Shown: piece after piece, positions 42,980 through 60,002 of the stretch | Position numbering within the stretch: position 1 is the stretch's first letter | Layout: each line of letters begins with the position of its first letter | Assembly (NCBI GenBank): GCA_050950765.1 | Contig: JBMNIF010000003.1 | Span: 512,001 to 576,000, forward strand | DNA from: Bdellovibrionota bacterium | GTDB taxonomy: Bacteria; Bdellovibrionota_C; UBA2361; JAAYZI01 | DNA: 64,000 bases | Direction: 5' to 3' | The notes under the pieces: model-generated | What the model was told of the DNA's origin: nothing | Database searches by the model: none | The model's input: only the letters and a program-made list of their open reading frames with translations | Position numbers and translations under genes: made by a program

Positions 42980-44824
42980 CCTAAATTCCCGTTTTTTTAT
43001 AGTCTACACCTTAGTATTTAATATTTTATCGACAAAAATCTTCTGGTCAATTTCTAATGCTTCTAAAATATCTTTTTGTTTTTTTGTTAATGGCTGTAGT
43101 AGCATGCTCAGATTTTCATTATCTATGCGTCTTATCATTTTAAGCGCTTCTAAAACTCTCTGAATGGTTTTTTCTACTTTTTTGTTATTATTATTTATAG
43201 TTCTTTGTAAGTCTGACCACATAATTAAGCTAAGAAAGGAGACGAAGCTTTTGCCGTCAGTAGTTTTTTCATTATGTGTTAGCATACGGTCATTATCCAA
43301 TTCATTTTTTAAATTATCGAAAGCTTTCTCAATAAAGTCTCGTCGTGAATAGATATGAAGTGCTTCTTGTGGTGTCATTGTTGAGTGGTTACTCAAAAAA
43401 GCAAAAACTCCTAGCATAGATAAGATATCGGTAATTTTTTCATGATCCCTTTCAAAACTTTCTAACTGCACTTCTTTCTTAGTTTTTATTTTGTAGTATT
43501 TAGAGTAGCGACTCATACTCATAGGCTTTTTCATTTCTTTTAGTTCATCTTCTAATCTGTCAATATGAGAGTAAAGAGTGCTCTCTTCCTCAGATGCACT
43601 TTTTGTATTTAAGTAAACGTAGAGAGAAAATTTTTCTCCATTTATCACAATATCTTTTCTTACCCCATAACAATTTGTCCCAGATATGTGATTCCTAGAA
43701 GAGCGAAGAGTAACAGATGCTTCCCTCATAGTATCGTTGTAATTTTTCTGAGATTTAGGAACAGCTACGAGAAATTCTATTTGCTCTTTTTTTATATATT
43801 CTAAATTTTCTTTTGTAATAAAACCTCTATCCAGAACATAAAATATATCATCAATACCTAAGCTTTTAGAGTATTCCATCATTGTTGTAAGAAAAACTTT
43901 ATCAACAACACTTCCACTGTAAAGAAAAAAACTTATTGGTAAATTGCTGTCGGTAGCGTATAAAAGTCCGACATTTAGTTGTGGTAAATATTCTTTGTCT
44001 CTATTGTATCCATTCTCGGCAAGTGGCAAGTCTGCATAAGTAGAAAGGCTCGTAACATCATAAGCTACAGTCTCATTGTTTTTCATAGCATGGTTTTTCC
44101 ACACAGAAAAAAACTTCATTTGATCTTGTTTGGTAATCGATGAAAAAAGCTCACTTGTCTTTTGCGAGGATAGAGATATGTTTTTAGGGGTAAGAGTATT
44201 TTGCAAAAAATTATCTATATTCATCATTACATTGCCTTCGCAAGCCATGTATAACGCAGTATAAAAGATATCTTCGTATTTATCGGGAAAGATTGTTTTT
44301 AAGCATTTTAATAACCCTATAGCCTCAGCTCTCATTTTTAATGCGACTACGTGACCTGCGTCCCAAACAAAGCGAGAAGAAGCTAGATCAATAACGTCAG
44401 ATGGCATTGGATAATATTTTCTAAAGTTCTCATTAGGAATCATTCTTCCTTGTCTATCAGGGTCTATCTTTCCCACAATCACTTCATCACAAGTAGGTGT
44501 GCCGTTCTTATTACGACGATGACCAAGTACGTGATACACATACTTTACGTTCCCTTTGTTATCTTTTTTATACGAAATCTTTTTTTCTGGAATTGGAATT
44601 GAAATATTTATTAAAGCCATTTTGCCTCCTATTTTTTACTGTCTCGTAGACTACGGAAGTATAGTCTACAAAGCAAAAGATGTCAATAGTTTTTTTAAAA
44701 AAATTAAAAAAACTTTTATAAAAAAACTTAATTAAATAAGTATGTTGGAGGAAATATAATATTAGAAAATCTAAATATGAAATTAAATTATTGATATGGA
44801 CTACATAAAAAACGGGAATTTAGG
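42980..44824 (-). mobile_element. Complete IS1634-family insertion sequence (1845 bp)
   Basis: 18-bp perfect terminal IR CCTAAATTCCCGTTTTTT; TSD TAACTGT at 42973-42979 and 44825-44831; single transposase. Confidence 0.92.
43004..44620 (-). CDS. IS1634-family DDE transposase
   Basis: YDVTSLSTY, GYNRDK…PQLN, G…D, LDRGF, YSRRDFIEKAFDNLK, GKSFVSFLSLI. Confidence 0.9.
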   Translation of the reverse strand: MALINISIPIPEKKISYKKDNKGNVKYVYHVLGHRRNKNGTPTCDEVIVGKIDPDRQGRMIPNENFRKYYPMPSDVIDLASSRFVWDAGHVVALKMRAEAIGLLKCLKTIFPDKYEDIFYTALYMACEGNVMMNIDNFLQNTLTPKNISLSSQKTSELFSSITKQDQMKFFSVWKNHAMKNNETVAYDVTSLSTYADLPLAENGYNRDKEYLPQLNVGLLYATDSNLPISFFLYSGSVVDKVFLTTMMEYSKSLGIDDIFYVLDRGFITKENLEYIKKEQIEFLVAVPKSQKNYNDTMREASVTLRSSRNHISGTNCYGVRKDIVINGEKFSLYVYLNTKSASEEESTLYSHIDRLEDELKEMKKPMSMSRYSKYYKIKTKKEVQLESFERDHEKITDILSMLGVFAFLSNHSTMTPQEALHIYSRRDFIEKAFDNLKNELDNDRMLTHNEKTTDGKSFVSFLSLIMWSDLQRTINNNNKKVEKTIQRVLEALKMIRRIDNENLSMLLQPLTKKQKDILEALEIDQKIFVDKILNTKV

Positions 44825-51947: not shown

Positions 51948-52529
51948 ATGACAACTTTTAAGATATTCCTGACTATTTGTTGCGGTTTATTATTGAGTGC
52001 TTGTAGCAGTAAATCTACTCAATCTCAATTTTATATGTTGAACATTGATGTGTCAGACCTTCCGACGGTACAAAGCAAATATACTTCAATCGGAATCGGT
52101 CCTATTGAGGTAGCAACTTATTTGCAGCAATCACAACTTGTCACACAGGAGAGCGACAACAGGTATAAATTAAATGAATTTAATCGTTGGATAGAGCCTT
52201 TAGACGACACCATAACTTCAGCCATGAGCACCGTTTTTGCGCATCAACTCGGCATCAAGCAGGTCTACACCTATCCGTGGCTGGAAGTTAATCCTGACTT
52301 GCACCTAACTATTAAACTACACCGCTTCCACTGTCAGATAAATACTAAACAGTGTGATCTAGTTGCGGCGTGGACACTAAGAAACGGTAAAACGGGTAAA
52401 CAGATTAAGAGTGATTTTGTAACGGAGTCTTTACCGCTATCTAAAAACGATTTTGTTACCGTTGTTGAAACATTGAGTGATCTTCTTAAAAACTTAAGTA
52501 AGAGGATAGTGACCGAGATTCAAGGATAG
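51948..52529 (+). CDS. PqiC-like ABC transport auxiliary lipoprotein
   Basis: Lipobox LSAC; FY.L, GPI...YL, RW.EPL, YPW. Confidence 0.85.
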   Translation: MTTFKIFLTICCGLLLSACSSKSTQSQFYMLNIDVSDLPTVQSKYTSIGIGPIEVATYLQQSQLVTQESDNRYKLNEFNRWIEPLDDTITSAMSTVFAHQLGIKQVYTYPWLEVNPDLHLTIKLHRFHCQINTKQCDLVAAWTLRNGKTGKQIKSDFVTESLPLSKNDFVTVVETLSDLLKNLSKRIVTEIQG

Positions 52530-52536
52530 GTGTAAA

Positions 52537-53151
52537 TTATAGCAACTTCTTTAAAGTTCTGTTGCTTTCAAGTTGAGGTCTAATATCTTTCAGGAGCTCT
52601 TCTGCATTCGGAGCTGCCACAAGAGCGGCTAGGCATCCTTGCACCTTTTTTGTACATCTAATCTCCTTTTTTAAAGCGCGGCACACTACATCTTTATAAA
52701 CTGCTAAGGCTGCATCGCAGTCTACTCCGAGGCACGTCAACGTATAGCCGATGGCAACACGAAAATCAGTTGCAAGCGGTTCTACATAATACTGTCTTCT
52801 TAAACACGGTATTCTTCCAGTTGTATCCAGCAGTTCAATCTGATCTAACAGCGCTCTCCTGACATTATCGGGGCAACTTCCCCCTTGTGATCGCATCTTT
52901 TCTCCTATCGTTTGCATTACCTGCAAAGCGGTTTTAACAACATCCATCGAATAAGCAAAAAGAGGGGGGATAGCAGCACTCAAAGCTTTTGGGTAATCAC
53001 TTTCATTTAAAAGATACTCCAACGCCTCAATTCTAAGATGAGGAGAGGTACGAGGTTTTAGGTCGTCAGCAACTGCTCCGAGTGCAAGACCTGGAAAGAG
53101 TGGAGTTGATGGAGGGTTTCCTTGTGATTGTTCTGTTCTGGGATTATTCAA
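52537..53151 (-). CDS. Hypothetical protein
   Basis: 204-aa ORF; GGGAG upstream of TTG start. Confidence 0.55.
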   Translation of the reverse strand: MNNPRTEQSQGNPPSTPLFPGLALGAVADDLKPRTSPHLRIEALEYLLNESDYPKALSAAIPPLFAYSMDVVKTALQVMQTIGEKMRSQGGSCPDNVRRALLDQIELLDTTGRIPCLRRQYYVEPLATDFRVAIGYTLTCLGVDCDAALAVYKDVVCRALKKEIRCTKKVQGCLAALVAAPNAEELLKDIRPQLESNRTLKKLL

Positions 53152-53339
53152 CGTAGCAACTCCCTCTTACTGCAAAAGATAAGCTTTAAGGTATGCTAAC
53201 CGATTTCAATACATAAAAGTAATATTTTTAGCATATTATAATAAATGATTAAAAATGTTGAAATATTTTTCATTTTTTAGTTAGATTACAACAACCTCAA
53301 CGGGTTCAGCGGTGTTTTTAGCGTTAATTTATTGGAATA

Positions 53340-54704
53340 GTGAAAATGGAAATGAACATTCTTAAAGAGCAAGATCCTGAGATTTATGCAATTATAAAAG
53401 GTGAGGAAGAGAGACAACAAAACAAGTTGTCGATGATCGCATCAGAGAACTTTACATCACCCGCTATTCGTCAAGCGTTGGGCTCCGTCCTCACTCATAA
53501 ATATTCAGAAGGATACTCAGGGGCTCGTTATTACGAAGGTAACGCTTTTATCGATCAACTTGAAGACCTCACCATTGAACGTGCTAAAAAAGCTTTTAAG
53601 TTACCAGAAGATTGGGGTGCTAACGTTCAGACGCTTTCCGGTAGTCCAGCTAACTTAGCCGTTATGTTAGGGCTTTTAGAGCCTGGTGACACTATCTTCG
53701 GTATGTACCTGTCGGACGGAGGTCACCTCTCTCACGGCTGGTCGTATGAGCCGAAGAGTACAAAAAATGACCCGAATGATATGTTATATACAGGGGGAAG
53801 TAGAAAGGTAAATGTTACTTCAAAGTTCTTCCGTGCCTTTCAATACAAAACAGACCCGAAGACGAAGCTTTTTGATTGGGATGCCGTAGAAAAGATGGCT
53901 TTGGAGATTAAGCCTAAATTAATCATCACTGGCGGCACCGCTTATCCGCGTGAGATAGATTATAAACGTGTAAAAGTTATCGCTGATAAGGTCGGAGCGT
54001 ATTACTTAGCAGACATTGCGCATGAAGCAGGATTGGTTGCTGCGGGAGTGAACGCTTCTCCCGTTGGAATTGCAGATGTTGTTACCTTTACAACGCACAA
54101 AACGTTACGTTGTAACCGTGGAGCTATTATCTTAGCCCGCCAAGATCTCCTAAAGAAGATCAATCGCGCTGTCTTTCCTGGATTACAAGGTGGACCTCAT
54201 AACCACAGCATGGCTGGTATCGCTGTCGGATTAAAAGAGACTATGACCCCACAATTCAAAGAGTATGCGGCTCAAGTTGTTAAGAATGCTCAAACGCTTG
54301 CTGCTGAATTGGAAAAACTGGGATTCTCTATCGTTTCTGGCGGTACTGACAAACACCTTGTTTTAATAGATTTAACAAACAAAGGTGTTTTCGGAAGAAA
54401 GTTTGCTCGTGCCTTAGATCATGCTGGTATAGTGGCAAATATGAATACAATGCCGCAAGAGACTCGTCCACCATCTGACCCTTCCGGACTTCGCATCGGC
54501 ACCGCTTGGGTAACCACACGTGGGATGAAGGAAGCTGAGATGAAAACTATCGCCGCTTTTTACAATAAAGTTATGGAGATCATTAAGCAGTGGAACGATC
54601 TTGAGTTTGAGGAGTTTGAAAAAGCAGTTAAAGGTAGTGCCGAGATCGCTGCTATTGCAGCAGATGTTAAAGCACTCTGTGCGAAGTTCCCGTTAAATAT
54701 ATAA
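53340..54704 (+). CDS. glyA: Serine hydroxymethyltransferase
   Basis: IASEN, KYSEGY...RYY, GGHLSHG, TTHKTLR, FPGLQGGP, SGLRIGT. Confidence 0.97.
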   Translation: MKMEMNILKEQDPEIYAIIKGEEERQQNKLSMIASENFTSPAIRQALGSVLTHKYSEGYSGARYYEGNAFIDQLEDLTIERAKKAFKLPEDWGANVQTLSGSPANLAVMLGLLEPGDTIFGMYLSDGGHLSHGWSYEPKSTKNDPNDMLYTGGSRKVNVTSKFFRAFQYKTDPKTKLFDWDAVEKMALEIKPKLIITGGTAYPREIDYKRVKVIADKVGAYYLADIAHEAGLVAAGVNASPVGIADVVTFTTHKTLRCNRGAIILARQDLLKKINRAVFPGLQGGPHNHSMAGIAVGLKETMTPQFKEYAAQVVKNAQTLAAELEKLGFSIVSGGTDKHLVLIDLTNKGVFGRKFARALDHAGIVANMNTMPQETRPPSDPSGLRIGTAWVTTRGMKEAEMKTIAAFYNKVMEIIKQWNDLEFEEFEKAVKGSAEIAAIAADVKALCAKFPLNI

Positions 54705-54833
54705 GTTAGTTATATAATTACAGGATAGTTTTTTAAAAAAGAGGTGGGGGAAAGATATTTTAAATAAAGTTTCTCCTGCCTTTTTAGTTTGAGATATTCT
54801 TAAAAAGTTGTGCTATAAATCAAAATAAAATAT

Positions 54834-55021
54834 TGTCCTAAGTGACGTTCTTTTTAAATCAGGTACGGTAGATTTTTATTAGGCTTCGGTTTAAACAGTG
54901 CTTAAGTTTTTAGTGTTGTTTAAACCGGAAGCTTTAGAGAAAAATGTTTTTCTATTGAATAAGGTTCTATCGTTCGTTAACAAAGTTACAAATCCTCATT
55001 TGCCGTTTGACGGCTAGAAAA
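54834..55021 (+). repeat. Conserved structured leader, copy 1 (candidate cis-regulatory/ncRNA)
   Basis: 54834-54934 is 99/101 identical to 55943-56043; 54992-55021 identical to 56099-56128; several hairpins. Confidence 0.9.
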
Positions 55022-55039
55022 AAAATTGAGGTAAAAAAG

Positions 55040-55648
55040 ATGGACAACCACAAATCCCTTACTCCTCAAGACCTTTTAAGGGAACTTAAAAGTCTTGCAA
55101 TAGAGAAGGAATCGAACAATCGTACAATAATTAACGGTCATGACGATTGTTCGATACTTGACGCAGCAGAATTGGAGGGTGTTACTGCGATACCTGACGC
55201 AGCAGAATGCGAGGGTGTTACAACAGTCTACTCTTTTCAGGGAAAGGTACAACCTAGGCTTGTTGCTCTTTTAGGAAATCCTTGTAGAAAGTCTTATGAT
55301 GCCTTTCGAGATAAGCTTGCATGTCGCGACGGATTCCCTAAAGGTCTTTCGCCTGTGGACGTGTTGGCTTCGTCGCTCAGTTTCAACGAGGGCTTTCCAG
55401 CGCTCCGTAGAGCGATAGATGAAGCGATGGCGGAAGACTATTGTCTAAGGGAATCCTTCCCAATTCCAGCTCACCTTAAGATGCATGTCAACACAATCAC
55501 GGGGAAGATTAACGCTTCAAAAGATCTGGTGTCGAAAAATCTTCTGAAGATCATCCCTGCCAGTCAACTAGACGACTTCCTCTATGGCTGCTTCGTCAAT
55601 GTACGAAAAATATACGCCTACTTAAAACTCGGTCTCATATTCCCCTAG
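55040..55648 (+). CDS. Orphan protein A1 (202 aa), distant paralog of A2
   Basis: GAGG RBS plus ATG 55040; KVQPRLVALLGNP…FPAL…LLKIIP…DFL. Confidence 0.7.
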   Translation: MDNHKSLTPQDLLRELKSLAIEKESNNRTIINGHDDCSILDAAELEGVTAIPDAAECEGVTTVYSFQGKVQPRLVALLGNPCRKSYDAFRDKLACRDGFPKGLSPVDVLASSLSFNEGFPALRRAIDEAMAEDYCLRESFPIPAHLKMHVNTITGKINASKDLVSKNLLKIIPASQLDDFLYGCFVNVRKIYAYLKLGLIFP

Positions 55649-55729
55649 CGTGGTTCTTTATGTTGGCTTCTCATGTAATGAATAGCAACTAGGAACCCCC
55701 TTGCGGAGCCGAACACTGCGAGTATAAAT

Positions 55730-55779
55730 CCGAGAGGTTTTTTAGATTAAGGTTTTACCTTCTTCGAAAAGCTTCTCGG
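55730..55779 (+). terminator. 3' hairpin of cassette A1
   Basis: CCGAGAGGTTTT…AAAAGCTTCTCGG. Confidence 0.65.
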
Positions 55780-55813
55780 TTTCGCCTATTATCTAAAAAC
55801 ACTAATAAAAATC

Positions 55814-55852
55814 ATACCAATTCAGCAAATGTTGCTGATGCTTCTTTGGCTA
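55814..55852. repeat. 39-bp exact duplicate of ybaK 3' end (57194-57232)
   Basis: ATACCAATTCAGCAAATGTTGCTGATGCTTCTTTGGCTA at both sites. Confidence 0.93.
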
Positions 55853-55942
55853 AAGCTTTTAAAAAATCTTTCAATTAATTGGAACACTCTTTTGAGTTGC
55901 AATAAAAATCAACATAGAATAGCATCTAAAGCGTTTCTGATA

Positions 55943-56128
55943 TGTCCTAAGTGACGTTCTTTTTAAATCAGGTACGGTAGATTTTTATTGGGCTTCGGTT
56001 CAAACAGTGCTTAAGTTTTTAGTGTTGTTTAAACCGGAAGCTTAAAAGAAAGAAATTTCTTACTACGGTTTTATCGTTACTGTTAACGAAAACTATTGAT
56101 CCTCATTTGCCGTTTGACGGCTAGAAAA
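55943..56128 (+). repeat. Conserved structured leader, copy 2
   Basis: See copy 1; preceded by TTGAGT-N17-TAGAAT (55892-55920), a sigma70-like promoter. Confidence 0.9.
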
Positions 56129-56137
56129 GGAACCAGA

Positions 56138-56776
56138 GTGACAAGTGAACTTAACGCTCTCTCGGATCGTGAAGCTCGTTTGAAACTTTTGGAGGAGCGT
56201 CGGCACCAAGAAAAAAGGTTCCTTAGGAACCTTGACAATTGGTTCAAACGCATCGAACAGGGCAGGAAAAAGAACGCTAAACGCGCTCGGAGTAAGGGAA
56301 AGAACACTAAACATAAACCACTTGCTCTTTCGCAAAAGATGCAGGATAGGCTTGTTGAACTTCTCGAAGAACCTTCTAAAGGATGGTATACTGAAATTCG
56401 AAAGATCCTTGCCAATCCATCTCGTTTAGAGATTTTCGCCGCCGCACTCGATCCGAAAAAATTCCCAACGCTCTACGAAAAGATAAAAAAATCTTCTTTG
56501 TGGAACGCGAATTCGGGTGAATCAACTGAGGAGAATGGATTAAATTATCATAAAATCCATTCCTGCGTAATAAGTAACGCGGAGAGGTGGTCGAGACACC
56601 TTTTGGGGAGTATCCCTTCAGGTAAGCGATGCGATTTTATGTGCCTCCTTGTCGTAGAATGGAAACATTACTACCTAGACGTTCTATCTTCTCTCTTGCG
56701 GAAGTATGAAAACCCAAACACTAAAGCGTTAATCGAGCGTGCGCTTGCTAGAACTAGGAGCTCTTTACTGAGCTAA
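56138..56776 (+). CDS. Orphan protein A2 (212 aa), basic N-terminus
   Basis: AAGGA RBS plus GTG 56138; KMQDRLVELLEEP…FPTL…LLGSIP…DFM. Confidence 0.7.
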   Translation: MTSELNALSDREARLKLLEERRHQEKRFLRNLDNWFKRIEQGRKKNAKRARSKGKNTKHKPLALSQKMQDRLVELLEEPSKGWYTEIRKILANPSRLEIFAAALDPKKFPTLYEKIKKSSLWNANSGESTEENGLNYHKIHSCVISNAERWSRHLLGSIPSGKRCDFMCLLVVEWKHYYLDVLSSLLRKYENPNTKALIERALARTRSSLLS

Positions 56777-56785
56777 GCAAATTGA

Positions 56786-56833
56786 GGATCGAGAAGGTTT
56801 TGTTGAGAAATGCTTTCGAAAGCTTCTCGGTCC
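56786..56833 (+). terminator. 3' hairpin of cassette A2
   Basis: GGATCGAGAAG…CTTCTCGGTCC; related to 55730-55779. Confidence 0.65.
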
Positions 56834-57191
56834 CAGTTTAAAAAAAGCCTAATAAAGATCATATTTGCCTGTCTCTGATCAAACCAAAACTTTTCCCCTT
56901 TACGTATGTTAAGAGGTGATATCCTCCATTATTAAGACGTAACTCCTTTCTTTTATCTCGATATTTTTTTGCCCAATTAGGGAGATTTTTACTTTCTTTT
57001 TCATACCTAAATACGTATGCCAAAACAGCAGAACAGTTAACCCCTTTTATCACTAATTTTTAAAAGATCTCTATCAGTTATAACAATATTGCTATTTTAT
57101 AGTTACGTAAATTACAGAAAAGTTTTGTGCTAAAAGGAAGGCAAAAGCGAAGCTCTTCCTTAACTTCCTAACGGAGAAATCAAAACAAAGC

Positions 57192-57653
57192 CTATACCAA
57201 TTCAGCAAATGTTGCTGATGCTTCTTTGGCTAGATCTTTTGCTGCTATTCGGATCTGTAAGCCACGTTGTCCTGCACTAACAACGATCCACTCAAAATTA
57301 TTGGCGGTGTTATCAATAAAAACTGGTAGCCGTTTCTTACTACCCAGCGGAGAACAACCCCCTTTTAAATACCCCGTTAAACGTTGCATCTCACTAATAG
57401 CCGCTAAATCACACCTCTTACACCCCCAAACAGTAGCAACCTTTTTTAAGTTCAACTCATGCTCAGAAGAGAGGAGCGCCATCGCAAATTCTTTTTTATC
57501 ACTCTCCAAAACTAAAGTTTTAAAAACTTGCGCAGCAGGTATCTCCAACTTTTCAACAACTTCCTGCGCTGTAAAGTCAACCGCCTTAAAAGATAATACT
57601 TCAAAAGCACACTTGGCTTTAGTCAAAATCTCAATAGCTTGCGTCTGTTTCAT
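57192..57653 (-). CDS. ybaK: Cys-tRNA(Pro) deacylase YbaK/EbsC
   Basis: VFKTLV, TGYLKGGCSPLG, VSAGQRG. Confidence 0.92.
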   Translation of the reverse strand: MKQTQAIEILTKAKCAFEVLSFKAVDFTAQEVVEKLEIPAAQVFKTLVLESDKKEFAMALLSSEHELNLKKVATVWGCKRCDLAAISEMQRLTGYLKGGCSPLGSKKRLPVFIDNTANNFEWIVVSAGQRGLQIRIAAKDLAKEASATFAELV

Positions 57654-57684
57654 AACACTTACTAAAACAGGAAGAGTTTTTTCC

Positions 57685-57767
57685 CACCACTTCTAAACTC
57701 CTTCCTTATTAAAGAAATAACCTTTTCCTCACCACTTCCAAGCTCCCCCCTTATTAAAAAAATAACT
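57685..57767. repeat. 45-bp-period tandem duplication
   Basis: CACCACTTCyAArCTCCyyCCTTATTAAArAAATAAC at 57685 and 57730. Confidence 0.8.
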
Positions 57768-57773
57768 TCTTCA

Positions 57774-57801
57774 AAAAAGCCCCCACTAAATGGAGGCTTT
57801 T
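57774..57801 (-). terminator. Terminator after slipin gene
   Basis: AAAAAGCCCCCA-CTAAA-TGGAGGCTTTT. Confidence 0.6.
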
Positions 57802-57809
57802 ACTATTTT

Positions 57810-58568
57810 TTAGTTATTATTATTACCGTTACCACCAAAAGCTTTTAGGAACTCAAGTGGTATCGGGAAGAGGATGACAGAGTTCTGTTCAGTTGAAATC
57901 TGACGCAACGTCTCAAGATAACGTAGCTGTAATGTCAACGGCTCCTCTCCCATAATAGCGGCAGCATCTCGTAACTTTTCAGAAGCTTGGTACTCACCTT
58001 CTGATTGAATGATTTTGGAGCGTCTTTCACGTTCTGCTTCTGCCTGTTTTGCCATAGCACGTTGCATCTCTTGCGGCAGATCAATATGTTTCAACTCCAC
58101 TAAGGAGACCTTGATACCCCACGGATCTGTCTGATCATCAACGATCTTTTGAATGCGTAAATTAAGCTCTTCCCTCTTTGTAAGTAACTCATCCAATTCA
58201 GCTTCACCACAAACACTACGTAACGTTGTTTGCGCCAACTGACTTGTTGCATAGTGATAATCCATAACTTGTACAATAGCTTTATTAGCATCTACCACAC
58301 GATAATACAGAACAGCATTAACCTTAACAGAGACATTATCTCTCGTAATAACATCTTGAGGCGGCACATCCAGAGTTATGGTACGTTGATCAACTCTAAC
58401 CAATTTTTGAATCCCTGGAATAATAATACGGATACCCGCCTTTCTCGGTGTAGGTTCAAGCTTACCTAAAGTAAAAACTACCCCTCTCTCATACTCCTTC
58501 AATATGAAACAGGCACTTTTTAAAATAAAAGCGACACCGATAATTACTGCTGCCCATAACTCTATCAT
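57810..58568 (-). CDS. Slipin/SPFH (band 7) family protein
   Basis: [45 protein letters not shown]. Confidence 0.93.
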
Positions 58569-58655
58569 CTTTCCCCTCCATATATTTAAAACTTAACTAC
58601 AACTGACGTTCTCTAGTAAAAGAAGAGCACTAACAGAACAAAAAAACTCTCCCTC

Positions 58656-60002
58656 TTAGATCTTCTCTACTTTTAATACGAGCCCATCTTGCACACCTAC
58701 AACTTTAATAAGATCATCTTTTGATATCTCGGCAGAAGACTCACTCTTCACACTATTCCAATACTCCCCGTTAACAAAGACTCTGCCATTAGTAGAAAAA
58801 TCAGTGACCGCTCTGCCCTTCAGCCCTAACATCTCCTCTTTCCCTGTTTGCCCTTTAGTGCCACTCACCTTTAAGAGCTCATAAACAACCCAAACTAACA
58901 AAAGGGTAGTTAAAAGAGCTAACACTATAACAAACCACGGTGTTACACCTATCCCTGGTGCCATAGATTCATCCACTAAATAGATAGCTCCAAATACCAT
59001 AGCGATCACTCCACCGATTCCCAATATTCCAGATGTCACATACGCTTCTGCACCAAGCAAGAGCCCGCCCACTATAATCAACAACACACCAGCACTACTA
59101 ACGGGGATAATTTGACTCACGCCTAATGCTAAAAAGAGACAAACGATTCCAACCACTCCTGGAAAAATCGCACCTGGATGATACAACTCAAGCGCTAAGC
59201 CTGTTGTTGCCGCAAACCATAATAACGCTAAAATGTTCGGATTCCCTAACGAGTTTAAGACCCGCTCTTTAAAAGATTCTGAATAGGTTACCCTCTTTAA
59301 TTTTGAGAAGTCACCCAAGATTACTTTTTTACCACCGACAACAACCTCTCGACCTTTTATCTTTAATAGAAGGTCATCAAGATCCGTTGCTATCAGGTCT
59401 ATCACTTTTAATTTTAAAGCCTCCGCTGGCGTAATAGAACTACTGTCTTTTATAGATTTCTCTGCCCACTCCGCATTTCGTCCGCGCTGATCTGCAATAG
59501 ACTTTACCATAGCAACTGTAATATTTTCCGTTTTTACACGGAGATCTCCGCCGATATCCTTACCATCTCCCTGCACGGGGTGTGCAGCGCCCATACTTGT
59601 CCCTGGTGCCATTGCTGCAACATGTGCAGCCAGTGTAATAAACGTTCCGGCTGATGCCGCCATAGCACCACTCGGTGCGACATAGACTACAACAGGCACA
59701 GGAGATTTAAAGATCGTTTGCACCATCTCCTGCGTTGTATTTAAAACACCACCTGGGGTATCAAGAACCACAACAACTACGGCGGCGTTATCCTTTGCAG
59801 CTTTTAAGATCCCCCTTTCTAAATACGCCTGAGTACCTGGAAGGATCATCATCTTCATCGGGAGAATAACTACACTCTGTTCTTCCGAAGCCGTCTCCTG
59901 TTGTATATCAGATTCAACAACACCTTGCGCTAACGCTAACGGTGTTACAAAGAAAGAGAAAAGGGCGACCCCCAAAAGGTATACCTGAATTATTTTTTTC
60001 AT
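58656..60002 (-). CDS. nfeD: NfeD family membrane-bound serine protease
   Basis: LDTPGG, AASAG, APGTSMGAAHPV, RGRN, G.V.V.GEYW; adjacent to slipin. Confidence 0.92.
   Translation of the reverse strand: MKKIIQVYLLGVALFSFFVTPLALAQGVVESDIQQETASEEQSVVILPMKMMILPGTQAYLERGILKAAKDNAAVVVVVLDTPGGVLNTTQEMVQTIFKSPVPVVVYVAPSGAMAASAGTFITLAAHVAAMAPGTSMGAAHPVQGDGKDIGGDLRVKTENITVAMVKSIADQRGRNAEWAEKSIKDSSSITPAEALKLKVIDLIATDLDDLLLKIKGREVVVGGKKVILGDFSKLKRVTYSESFKERVLNSLGNPNILALLWFAATTGLALELYHPGAIFPGVVGIVCLFLALGVSQIIPVSSAGVLLIIVGGLLLGAEAYVTSGILGIGGVIAMVFGAIYLVDESMAPGIGVTPWFVIVLALLTTLLLVWVVYELLKVSGTKGQTGKEEMLGLKGRAVTDFSTNGRVFVNGEYWNSVKSESSAEISKDDLIKVVGVQDGLVLKVEKI

Follow-up and report, generated by a model that had tools for sequence, protein, structure and literature searches.

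Predicted pairing between leader and trailer around two tandem paralogous genes in a Bdellovibrionota bacterium

To our knowledge, helices that close the 5' untranslated region (UTR) of an mRNA against its 3' UTR are known only from Firmicutes and from enterobacterial toxin loci. In the hok and aapA1 mRNAs, pairing between the 5' and 3' parts produces a fold-back lock. Here we analyze a candidate for such a helix in a window of 64,000 nucleotides (nt) from a Bdellovibrionota bacterium (GenBank assembly GCA_050950765.1, contig JBMNIF010000003.1, positions 512,001 to 576,000 of the forward strand; coordinates below are those of the window). Two units stand head to tail between a serine hydroxymethyltransferase gene and a convergent ybaK-like gene. 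Each unit consists of a leader of about 200 nt, an open reading frame (ORF), a long 3' hairpin and, 15-20 nt further on, the short trailer tract CTAATAAA(A/G)ATCATA, which is complementary to a tract early in the leader.

In size and geometry, the closest described counterpart is the hbs mRNA of B. subtilis, in which a helix of 14 base pairs (bp) that joins the 5' UTR to the 3' UTR modulates ribonuclease cleavage in the structured leader (Braun, Durand and Condon 2017, PMC5737220). Here, too, a short helix would join a structured 5' UTR with the 3' UTR of the same mRNA, with a core of 12-16 bp as compared to the 14 bp published for hbs. Going by that report's account of the helix, there is no sequence or gene relationship between the two cases, and the ribosome-binding site of our units is additionally masked by a local anti-Shine-Dalgarno block; the helix considered here is a thermodynamic prediction. 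For icaR of S. aureus, the account of the pairing is that the motif UCCCCUG in the 3' UTR binds the Shine-Dalgarno region itself, which leads to translational inhibition and creates a substrate of RNase III (Ruiz de los Mozos et al. 2013, PMC3868564). This feature, which defines icaR in that account, is absent here: the predicted partner of the trailer lies some 150 nt before the ribosome-binding sites (55027, 56128), and these are masked by a separate local CCUC block instead of the 3' UTR. With hok/Sok and aapA1/IsoA1 (PMC9841398, PMC5416894) the units share the predicted 5'-3' lock of the full-length mRNA and the masked translation start. The mRNAs of these two systems, however, encode toxic peptides of about 30-50 amino acids (aa) and are accompanied by a cis-antisense RNA, whereas the ORFs described here have 202 and 212 aa, with no antisense partner in evidence.

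The four pairing tracts are the following.
54867-54882, + strand: leader tract of unit 1, GGTAGATTTTTATTAG, 5' arm of the long-range helix; it pairs with 55802-55818 in the minimum-energy fold at a mean probability of 0.99.
55802-55818, + strand: trailer tract of unit 1, CTAATAAAAATCATACC, 3' arm of the long-range helix (sequence, predicted fold).
55969-55995, + strand: leader tract of unit 2, 5' arm of the long-range helix (sequence, duplex of -29.4 kcal/mol, predicted fold).
56845-56871, + strand: trailer tract of unit 2, 3' arm of the long-range helix (sequence, duplex, predicted fold).

A preliminary description of this DNA had reported the complementarity, and its letters, coordinates and pair counts proved exact; our recount for unit 2 gives pairs at 23 of 27 positions (19 Watson-Crick, 4 G-U). 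In unit 1, GATTTTTATTAG (54871-54882) and CTAATAAAAATC (55802-55813) form 12 out of 12 Watson-Crick pairs, and GGTA/TACC contributes four further pairs across a one-base bulge. The core in unit 2 is a contiguous run of 16 pairs, 14 Watson-Crick and two G-U, between GATTTTTATTGGGCTT (55980-55995) and AAGCCTAATAAAGATC (56845-56860); six outer pairs (CAGGTA/TGCCTG) lie beyond an internal loop of five positions, inside which one G-U pair is possible. The tracts are interchangeable between the units, as leader 1 and trailer 2 are complementary over 16 nt at 94%.

Folding of the full transcripts had been suggested as a check, and its outcome agrees with the proposal: with both tracts on one RNA, the 5'-3' helix is part of the predicted minimum-energy structure of each unit. 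For all six choices of transcript ends, the helix of unit 1 has a mean pair probability of 0.99, and in unit 2 the probability is at least 0.95 for 14 of the 16 core pairs. The latter helix is also kept with three further 5' ends, one of which adds a competing copy of the trailer motif from upstream. If a single transcript spans both genes, the predicted fold swaps the partners, so that the leader tract of each unit pairs with the trailer tract of the other. These predictions support, in silico, the 5'-3' helix as the thermodynamically preferred partner if both tracts share one RNA. In the model, the long-range helix directly abuts a hairpin of the leader, and the two could stack.

The helix would thereby belong to a larger set of conserved elements around each ORF.
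54834-54949, + strand: leader block A of unit 1, the conserved 5' part of the leader (direct repeat, alignment).
55943-56058, + strand: leader block A of unit 2 (direct repeat, alignment).
54883-54932, + strand: predicted leader hairpin of unit 1, 20 pairs with one bulged G, abutting the long-range helix.
54992-55021, + strand: leader block B of unit 1; its CCUCA forms predicted pairs with UGAGG, the ribosome-binding site (55027-55031), and the small hairpin GCCGU/ACGGC is enclosed between the two.
56099-56128, + strand: leader block B of unit 2; its UCCU forms predicted pairs with AGGA, the ribosome-binding site (56128-56131).
55040-55648, + strand: ORF1, 202 aa, helical, of no known family (translation, Pfam, structure model).
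56138-56776, + strand: ORF2, 212 aa, a distant paralog of ORF1 (24% identity over 153 aa, expectation value (E) 2e-5).
55718-55785, + strand: predicted trailer hairpin of unit 1, without a clear U-run behind it and absent from the list of the terminator scan.
56779-56839, + strand: predicted trailer hairpin of unit 2.

ORF1 and ORF2 are tandem, diverged paralogous genes, and their leaders are far more conserved than the proteins (24% identity): block A comprises 116 nt that are 94% identical between the units, and the 30 nt of block B (54992-55021 versus 56099-56128) are 100% identical. Folded alone, both leaders are more stable than their shuffled counterparts (z-score -3.54, reached by 0 out of 200 shuffles, and -2.78, reached by 2 out of 200). 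In the predicted folds of both units, the CCUC of block B lies opposite the ribosome-binding site, around the GCCGU/ACGGC hairpin. The leader hairpin shows a small strand bias, with -20.2 kcal/mol on the + strand versus -15.6 on the - strand in unit 1, and -16.1 versus -15.7 in the other unit. The scan for terminators and promoters yielded no sigma-70-like promoter convincingly placed before a leader tract (4 sites versus 5.1 expected); words of sigma-28 and sigma-54 promoters were checked by eye only, against their consensus. The only promoter-like site upstream of a unit is TTGAGT-17-TAGAAT at 55892-55920.

In the trailers, the hairpin arms and the tract are common to both units, while the loops and the spacer differ; the best-conserved pieces are the trailer tract itself (14 of 15 positions identical between the units) and the 3' arm of the hairpin. 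Both hairpins rest on G-U pairs and have a much lower folding energy on the + strand (-26.4 versus -15.7 kcal/mol in unit 1, -28.5 versus -12.6 in unit 2), and therefore the modelled strand bias points to selection on the trailer hairpins at the level of RNA, not of DNA. No terminator was flagged by the scan at either trailer hairpin, and the nearest such site that follows unit 1, at 55822-55838, falls behind the trailer tract. Taken as a conserved + strand RNA module, the leaders, block B and the trailer hairpins are better supported than the long-range helix.

As the best single reading of these data we propose, tentatively and somewhat short of an even chance, a post-transcriptional RNA module with a closing 5'-3' helix like that of hbs. 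According to this model, one shared + strand RNA module would wrap each paralog and would consist of four parts: a structured 5' leader of about 200 nt with a long hairpin; the invariant block, whose CCUC would sequester the ribosome-binding site; a stable 3' hairpin; and a helix of 12-22 bp between the early leader and the tract 15-20 nt behind the 3' hairpin. The full-length mRNA would be closed end to end by this helix, stacked on the leader hairpin, and the closure, a proposal modelled on the descriptions of the 14-bp pairing in hbs and of the hok fold-back, would shield the 5' end and the leader from ribonucleases. Together with the masked ribosome-binding site, it might keep the finished mRNA stable but little translated, a state that would last up to remodelling or trimming. 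The model presupposes a single transcript with both tracts, formation of the helix inside the cell, and such a role for it there. If the helix does form, an uncultured lineage, the Bdellovibrionota, would possess a 5'/3'-UTR closing helix, tied to a fast-diverging gene family with nearly fixed untranslated regions. The locus would then offer a natural test of the idea that the untranslated regions, rather than the proteins, are the conserved unit.

How far the complementarity exceeds chance depends on the statistic. Our shuffle controls are dinucleotide shuffles of leader and trailer (n = 300 for uninterrupted runs, n = 100 for the best duplex of a 32-nt window). For unit 1, a Watson-Crick run of 12 is reached by 2 of the 300 shuffles, while a run of 12 with G-U pairs allowed is ordinary (142 out of 300); the best window duplex of this unit (-22.1 kcal/mol) lies elsewhere than at the tract and is reached by 19 of the 100 shuffles. 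In unit 2, it is the Watson-Crick run (8 pairs) that is ordinary (123 out of 300), whereas the run of 16 with G-U pairs is reached in only 3 cases and the window duplex of -29.4 kcal/mol, located at the tract, in none out of 100. Against the genomic background of 611 genes with intergenic flanks, 24 genes (3.9%) have a Watson-Crick run of at least 12 between their 5' and 3' flanks and 16 (2.6%) a run of at least 16 with G-U pairs, both units and copies of insertion sequences being included in either count. When 80 control genes of similar size were folded with the same flank lengths, a 5'-3' helix of at least 12 pairs occurred in the minimum-energy structure of five and one of at least 16 pairs in a single gene. 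The complementarity is hence real and modestly non-random, in the upper few percent depending on the statistic. It had been foreseen that shuffled AT-rich sequence might match equally well; about 1% of the shuffles do so on the better statistic of each unit, but with G-U pairs the shuffles match unit 1 without difficulty. Two further scores were set aside. RNAduplex applied to the whole flanks (unit 1: z -1.19, 63 out of 500; unit 2: z -3.67, 3 out of 500) chains many helices, and the trailer of unit 2 used for it ran into a miniature transposable element. A Smith-Waterman complementarity score with mild penalties (43 out of 300 and 0 out of 300) is not local; it gave a hint that the similarity of the leader to the reverse-complemented trailer extends slightly past the core.

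Several observations weigh against a closing helix. Because the two units are homologous, their complementarity counts as one independent instance, not two, and the searches made yielded no further copy for a covariation test beyond these two. The tracts are AT-rich, and about one gene in 16-25 of the genome matches the run of unit 1, which, as stated above, is ordinary once G-U pairs are admitted. The long-range duplex lacks a consistent strand bias (-17.9 kcal/mol on the + strand versus -21.2 on the - strand in unit 1, -29.4 versus -18.8 in unit 2). Among the three differences between the leaders, 54891 T versus 56000 C breaks a pair of the leader hairpin. The leader tract also has competing partners nearby: when only the leader is folded, ACGGUAGA binds a site about 100 nt downstream, and a third copy of the complementary motif is located 63 nt upstream of the tract of unit 2.
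55899-55911, + strand: extra copy of the trailer motif upstream of unit 2, GCAATAAAAATCA (inverted-repeat and motif search).
Extended to 55899-55913 (GCAATAAAAATCAAC), this copy is complementary to the leader tract of unit 2 at 13 of 14 positions, and it overlaps the spacer of the promoter-like site at 55892-55920. In both units, moreover, the 3' hairpin stands before the trailer tract; the hairpin of unit 1 is followed by the moderately U-rich UUUCGCCUAUUAUCU, and transcripts may terminate before the tract. Finally, in a 582-nt contig of an RNA library, which represents a third allele of the locus, sequencing-adapter letters directly precede 54964, a position some 80 nt beyond the leader tract, which weakly hints that an RNA 5' end lies on the downstream side of the tract.

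Nearly as likely as the closing helix is complementarity by chance or as a relic: the T-run of an AT-rich leader would happen to match an A-rich tract, both paralogs would have inherited the match without function, and transcripts would end at the 3' hairpins. Under this explanation the leader would be conserved for other reasons, such as promoter-proximal structure or control of the ribosome-binding site. It is favored by the frequencies among the 611 genes and the 80 control folds, by the behavior of unit 1 with G-U pairs and the position of its best window duplex, and by the lack of independence of the units. Near-matches are common as well, since the 13-nt motif CTAATAAAAATCA occurs 11 times in the window with at most two mismatches versus 5.8 times expected; by our estimate, 14 identical positions out of 15 in the tract are not extreme either, given that conservation is moderate all along the trailer, hairpin through tract. 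What chance explains less well is unit 2, whose duplex no shuffle reaches and whose run of 16 is found in 3 out of 300 shuffles and one out of 80 control folds, along with the clustering of five of the 11 motif matches in the 2-kb locus and the dominance of the helix in every full-length fold. The preliminary description had further argued that the A-to-G differences between the copies, by giving G-U pairs on the + strand, indicate RNA. The differences are real (54881 A versus 55990 G; 55810 A versus 56857 G), both give G-U pairs in unit 2, and both thus keep the pairing inside the helix, which speaks against chance. As an argument for RNA they are weak: there are only two substitutions, and the chance that both keep pairing is estimated at about 0.06-0.11. 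If chance is the answer, the lesson would be that AT-rich flanks easily provide a complementarity of 12-16 bp, in about one gene in 16 to 40 of this genome.

The clustering of the motif could instead reflect DNA, an explanation we consider unlikely: CTAATAAAAATCA might be a protein-binding (operator) or recombination site in inverted pairs around each gene or, in a variant, part of a switch in which each gene, lying between inverted repeats, is turned round by site-specific inversion with respect to a promoter outside the left repeat. The five copies with at most two mismatches lie within 2 kb, at 54870 (-), 55802 (+), 55899 (+), 55979 (-) and 56849 (+), as compared to six in the other 62 kb; the promoter-like site at 55892-55920 is indeed outside and upstream of the left repeat of unit 2, the tracts are interchangeable between units, and the repeat of unit 1 is perfect as DNA (12/12). 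On the other hand, Pfam detects no recombinase or regulator domain among 19 neighboring ORFs (40.5-63.6 kb), no strand-changing joint is listed in four sequencing runs (of which the two DNA runs are only about 3-5 deep), and no good copy exists upstream of unit 1. The exact 12-mer occurs only three times in the genome, so that it is not a general operator, and the repeat of unit 2 has only 14 of 16 positions as DNA, the differences being exactly those that RNA tolerates as G-U. Mobile gene cassettes, bounded by terminal inverted repeats or of the integron type, are very improbable. Inverted repeats do lie on either side of variable ORFs, the units follow each other in tandem, their junction holds a 47-nt copy of the neighboring gene's 3' end, and one low-depth DNA contig (396 nt, run X8, depth 5.4) leads from 57079-57193 to 55814-55942 and on to 54834-54985. 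Its two joints, 57193 to 55814 and 55942 to 54834, go back by 1380 and 1109 nt and cross two exact repeats, 39 and 47 nt long, as expected of a k-mer assembly path. Because the joints sit in exact repeats and the run leaves the true flanks uncovered, the contig probably reflects a low-cover assembly path and not a rearrangement, with tandem amplification, reordering or excised circles as alternatives. The repeats are not terminal, as the homology of the units continues for 33 nt (54834-54866) beyond the left arm and more weakly further upstream; only the two adjacent copies exist in the genome, with none in 40 relatives or in pattern scans of metagenomes and genomes, and neither a transposase or integrase in the units or the 19 neighbors nor a target-site duplication is seen. 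The core words of attC sites are RYYYAAC / GTTRRRY, and by eye the arms of the leader hairpin, GTTTAAAC, do not fit this consensus. A type I toxin-antitoxin system like hok or aapA, in which the toxin mRNA would be silenced by fold-back, the analogy drawn in the preliminary description, is hardly credible. The predicted fold-back and the masked ribosome-binding site are in its favor, as is a -10-like word, TATGAT, on the minus strand of both trailer tracts. The scan lists no promoter there, no matching -35 word or antisense RNA is seen, the units have no Rfam match, and the analogy fails on the gene product: the ORFs encode proteins of 202 and 212 aa, predicted to be helical and soluble, and not small membrane peptides of less than 60 aa. 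A combined explanation, doubtful in our judgement, would treat leader and trailer as interchangeable 'handles' around a hypervariable gene, which close, silence or stabilize the RNA and at the same time serve as DNA homology or inverted repeats for allele swap, tandem stacking or flipping, i.e. a system of cassettes that lacks an integron. In bioreactor populations, three or more widely differing alleles exist, namely ORF1, ORF2 and a P0003-like form that RNA-library contigs show behind the same leader.

Turning to the encoded proteins, neither ORF1 nor ORF2 belongs to a Pfam family. The AlphaFold2 model is helical, with a predicted local distance difference test score (pLDDT) of 63 and a predicted template modelling score (pTM) of 0.61. 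A tandem repeat in ORF1 (55152-55221; units of 34-36 nt, 91%) gives rise to two copies of DAAE(L/C)EGVT, and the repeat region is predicted to be disordered (pLDDT <50, residues 25-65). The best ESM Atlas score, 0.84 for 'Immunity protein 30', is within the chance range, and the best hit of a structural search (Z 6.2, an RHS toxin domain, 73 residues) is below the meaningful level for helical models. In a set of 5.8 billion proteins each ORF matched only itself, and in its own genome, at E values up to 1, neither has a paralog beyond the locus. A profile search yielded six matches: both ORFs, P0003, and a set of three long repeat proteins with 7-8 stretches each (E 5e-7 to 6e-6); the last three were set aside, without proof, as repeat artefacts. 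P0003 is a single-member cluster from one contig of 1237 nt. None of the other genomes to which the protein profile was applied, 90 from the order and 123 from the phylum, gave a match. At the nucleotide level, the genome of 2.64 Mb contains two matches to the leader and one to the trailer, all at this locus and none dispersed. A leader query of 197 nt found nothing in 40 relatives, and exact-word scans were negative for metagenome contigs (21-nt and 20-nt words) as well as genome contigs (22-nt word). The Rfam search with cmscan (52000-60000, E up to 1) gave three weak matches, all of them at 57764-57941 and none inside the units.

The interiors of both ORFs (55114-55643; 56313-56719) are present in RNA-library contigs from two studies, which fits expression. 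These contigs (X14, X16) are assembled, cannot show RNA ends, and are without cover over leader block A, the trailers, and the ends of glyA and the ybaK-like gene. The third allele is represented by the 582-nt contig (depth 22.5) mentioned above: it matches 54964-55024 with one difference, continues with 194 unlike letters where the window has 299, and then matches 55324-55355. Its N-terminal region is accordingly 35 codons shorter behind the same leader block B. It agrees in this with the only outside homolog, P0003 (173 aa, E 2.3e-12), being 35 residues shorter before the DGFPK motif.

The locus is framed by the following genes and elements.
53340-54704, + strand: serine hydroxymethyltransferase gene, glyA (Pfam SHMT, E 2.7e-148).
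55822-55838, + strand: terminator-like hairpin inside a copy of the end of the ybaK-like gene (terminator scan).
56882-57128, no strand assigned: miniature transposable element outside the cassette, between the trailer of unit 2 and the ybaK-like gene (35 genome matches).
57192-57653, - strand: ybaK-like aminoacyl-tRNA editing gene, convergent with the units (Pfam tRNA_edit, E 2.2e-28).
52537-53151, - strand: ORF of 204 aa upstream of glyA and on the opposite strand (no Pfam family, best E 0.071).
43004-44620, - strand: ORF of a 538-aa DDE transposase (DDE_Tnp_1, E 5.5e-13), about 10 kb upstream of the locus.

Directly behind the trailer of unit 1 (55814-55860, + strand), the final 47 nt of the ybaK-like gene occur a second time, at 96% identity to 57194-57240. 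This copy is the joint left either by a tandem duplication long ago or by unequal exchange, in which two alleles of the locus took part. Because it is near-identical while the ORFs share only 24% identity, the comparison suggests recent recombination in the flanks. In the one genome of the same family that was compared, the glyA genes are 47-53% identical and followed by other genes; the query used gave no ybaK match there and no empty site was found. A presumed third copy of the upstream region beside the ybaK-like gene (57119-57135) was rejected, for it is the right end of the miniature element. This element (56882-57128) has the inverted ends AACCnAAACTTTTC...TTACGTA. Several of its 35 matches in the 2.64-Mb genome represent both ends of elements of about 1.5 kb, which carry a DDE transposase of 471 aa (Pfam DDE_Tnp_1, E 1.6e-21). 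In the DNA runs, the depth of the miniature element is 5-10 times that of its flanks, with many variants.

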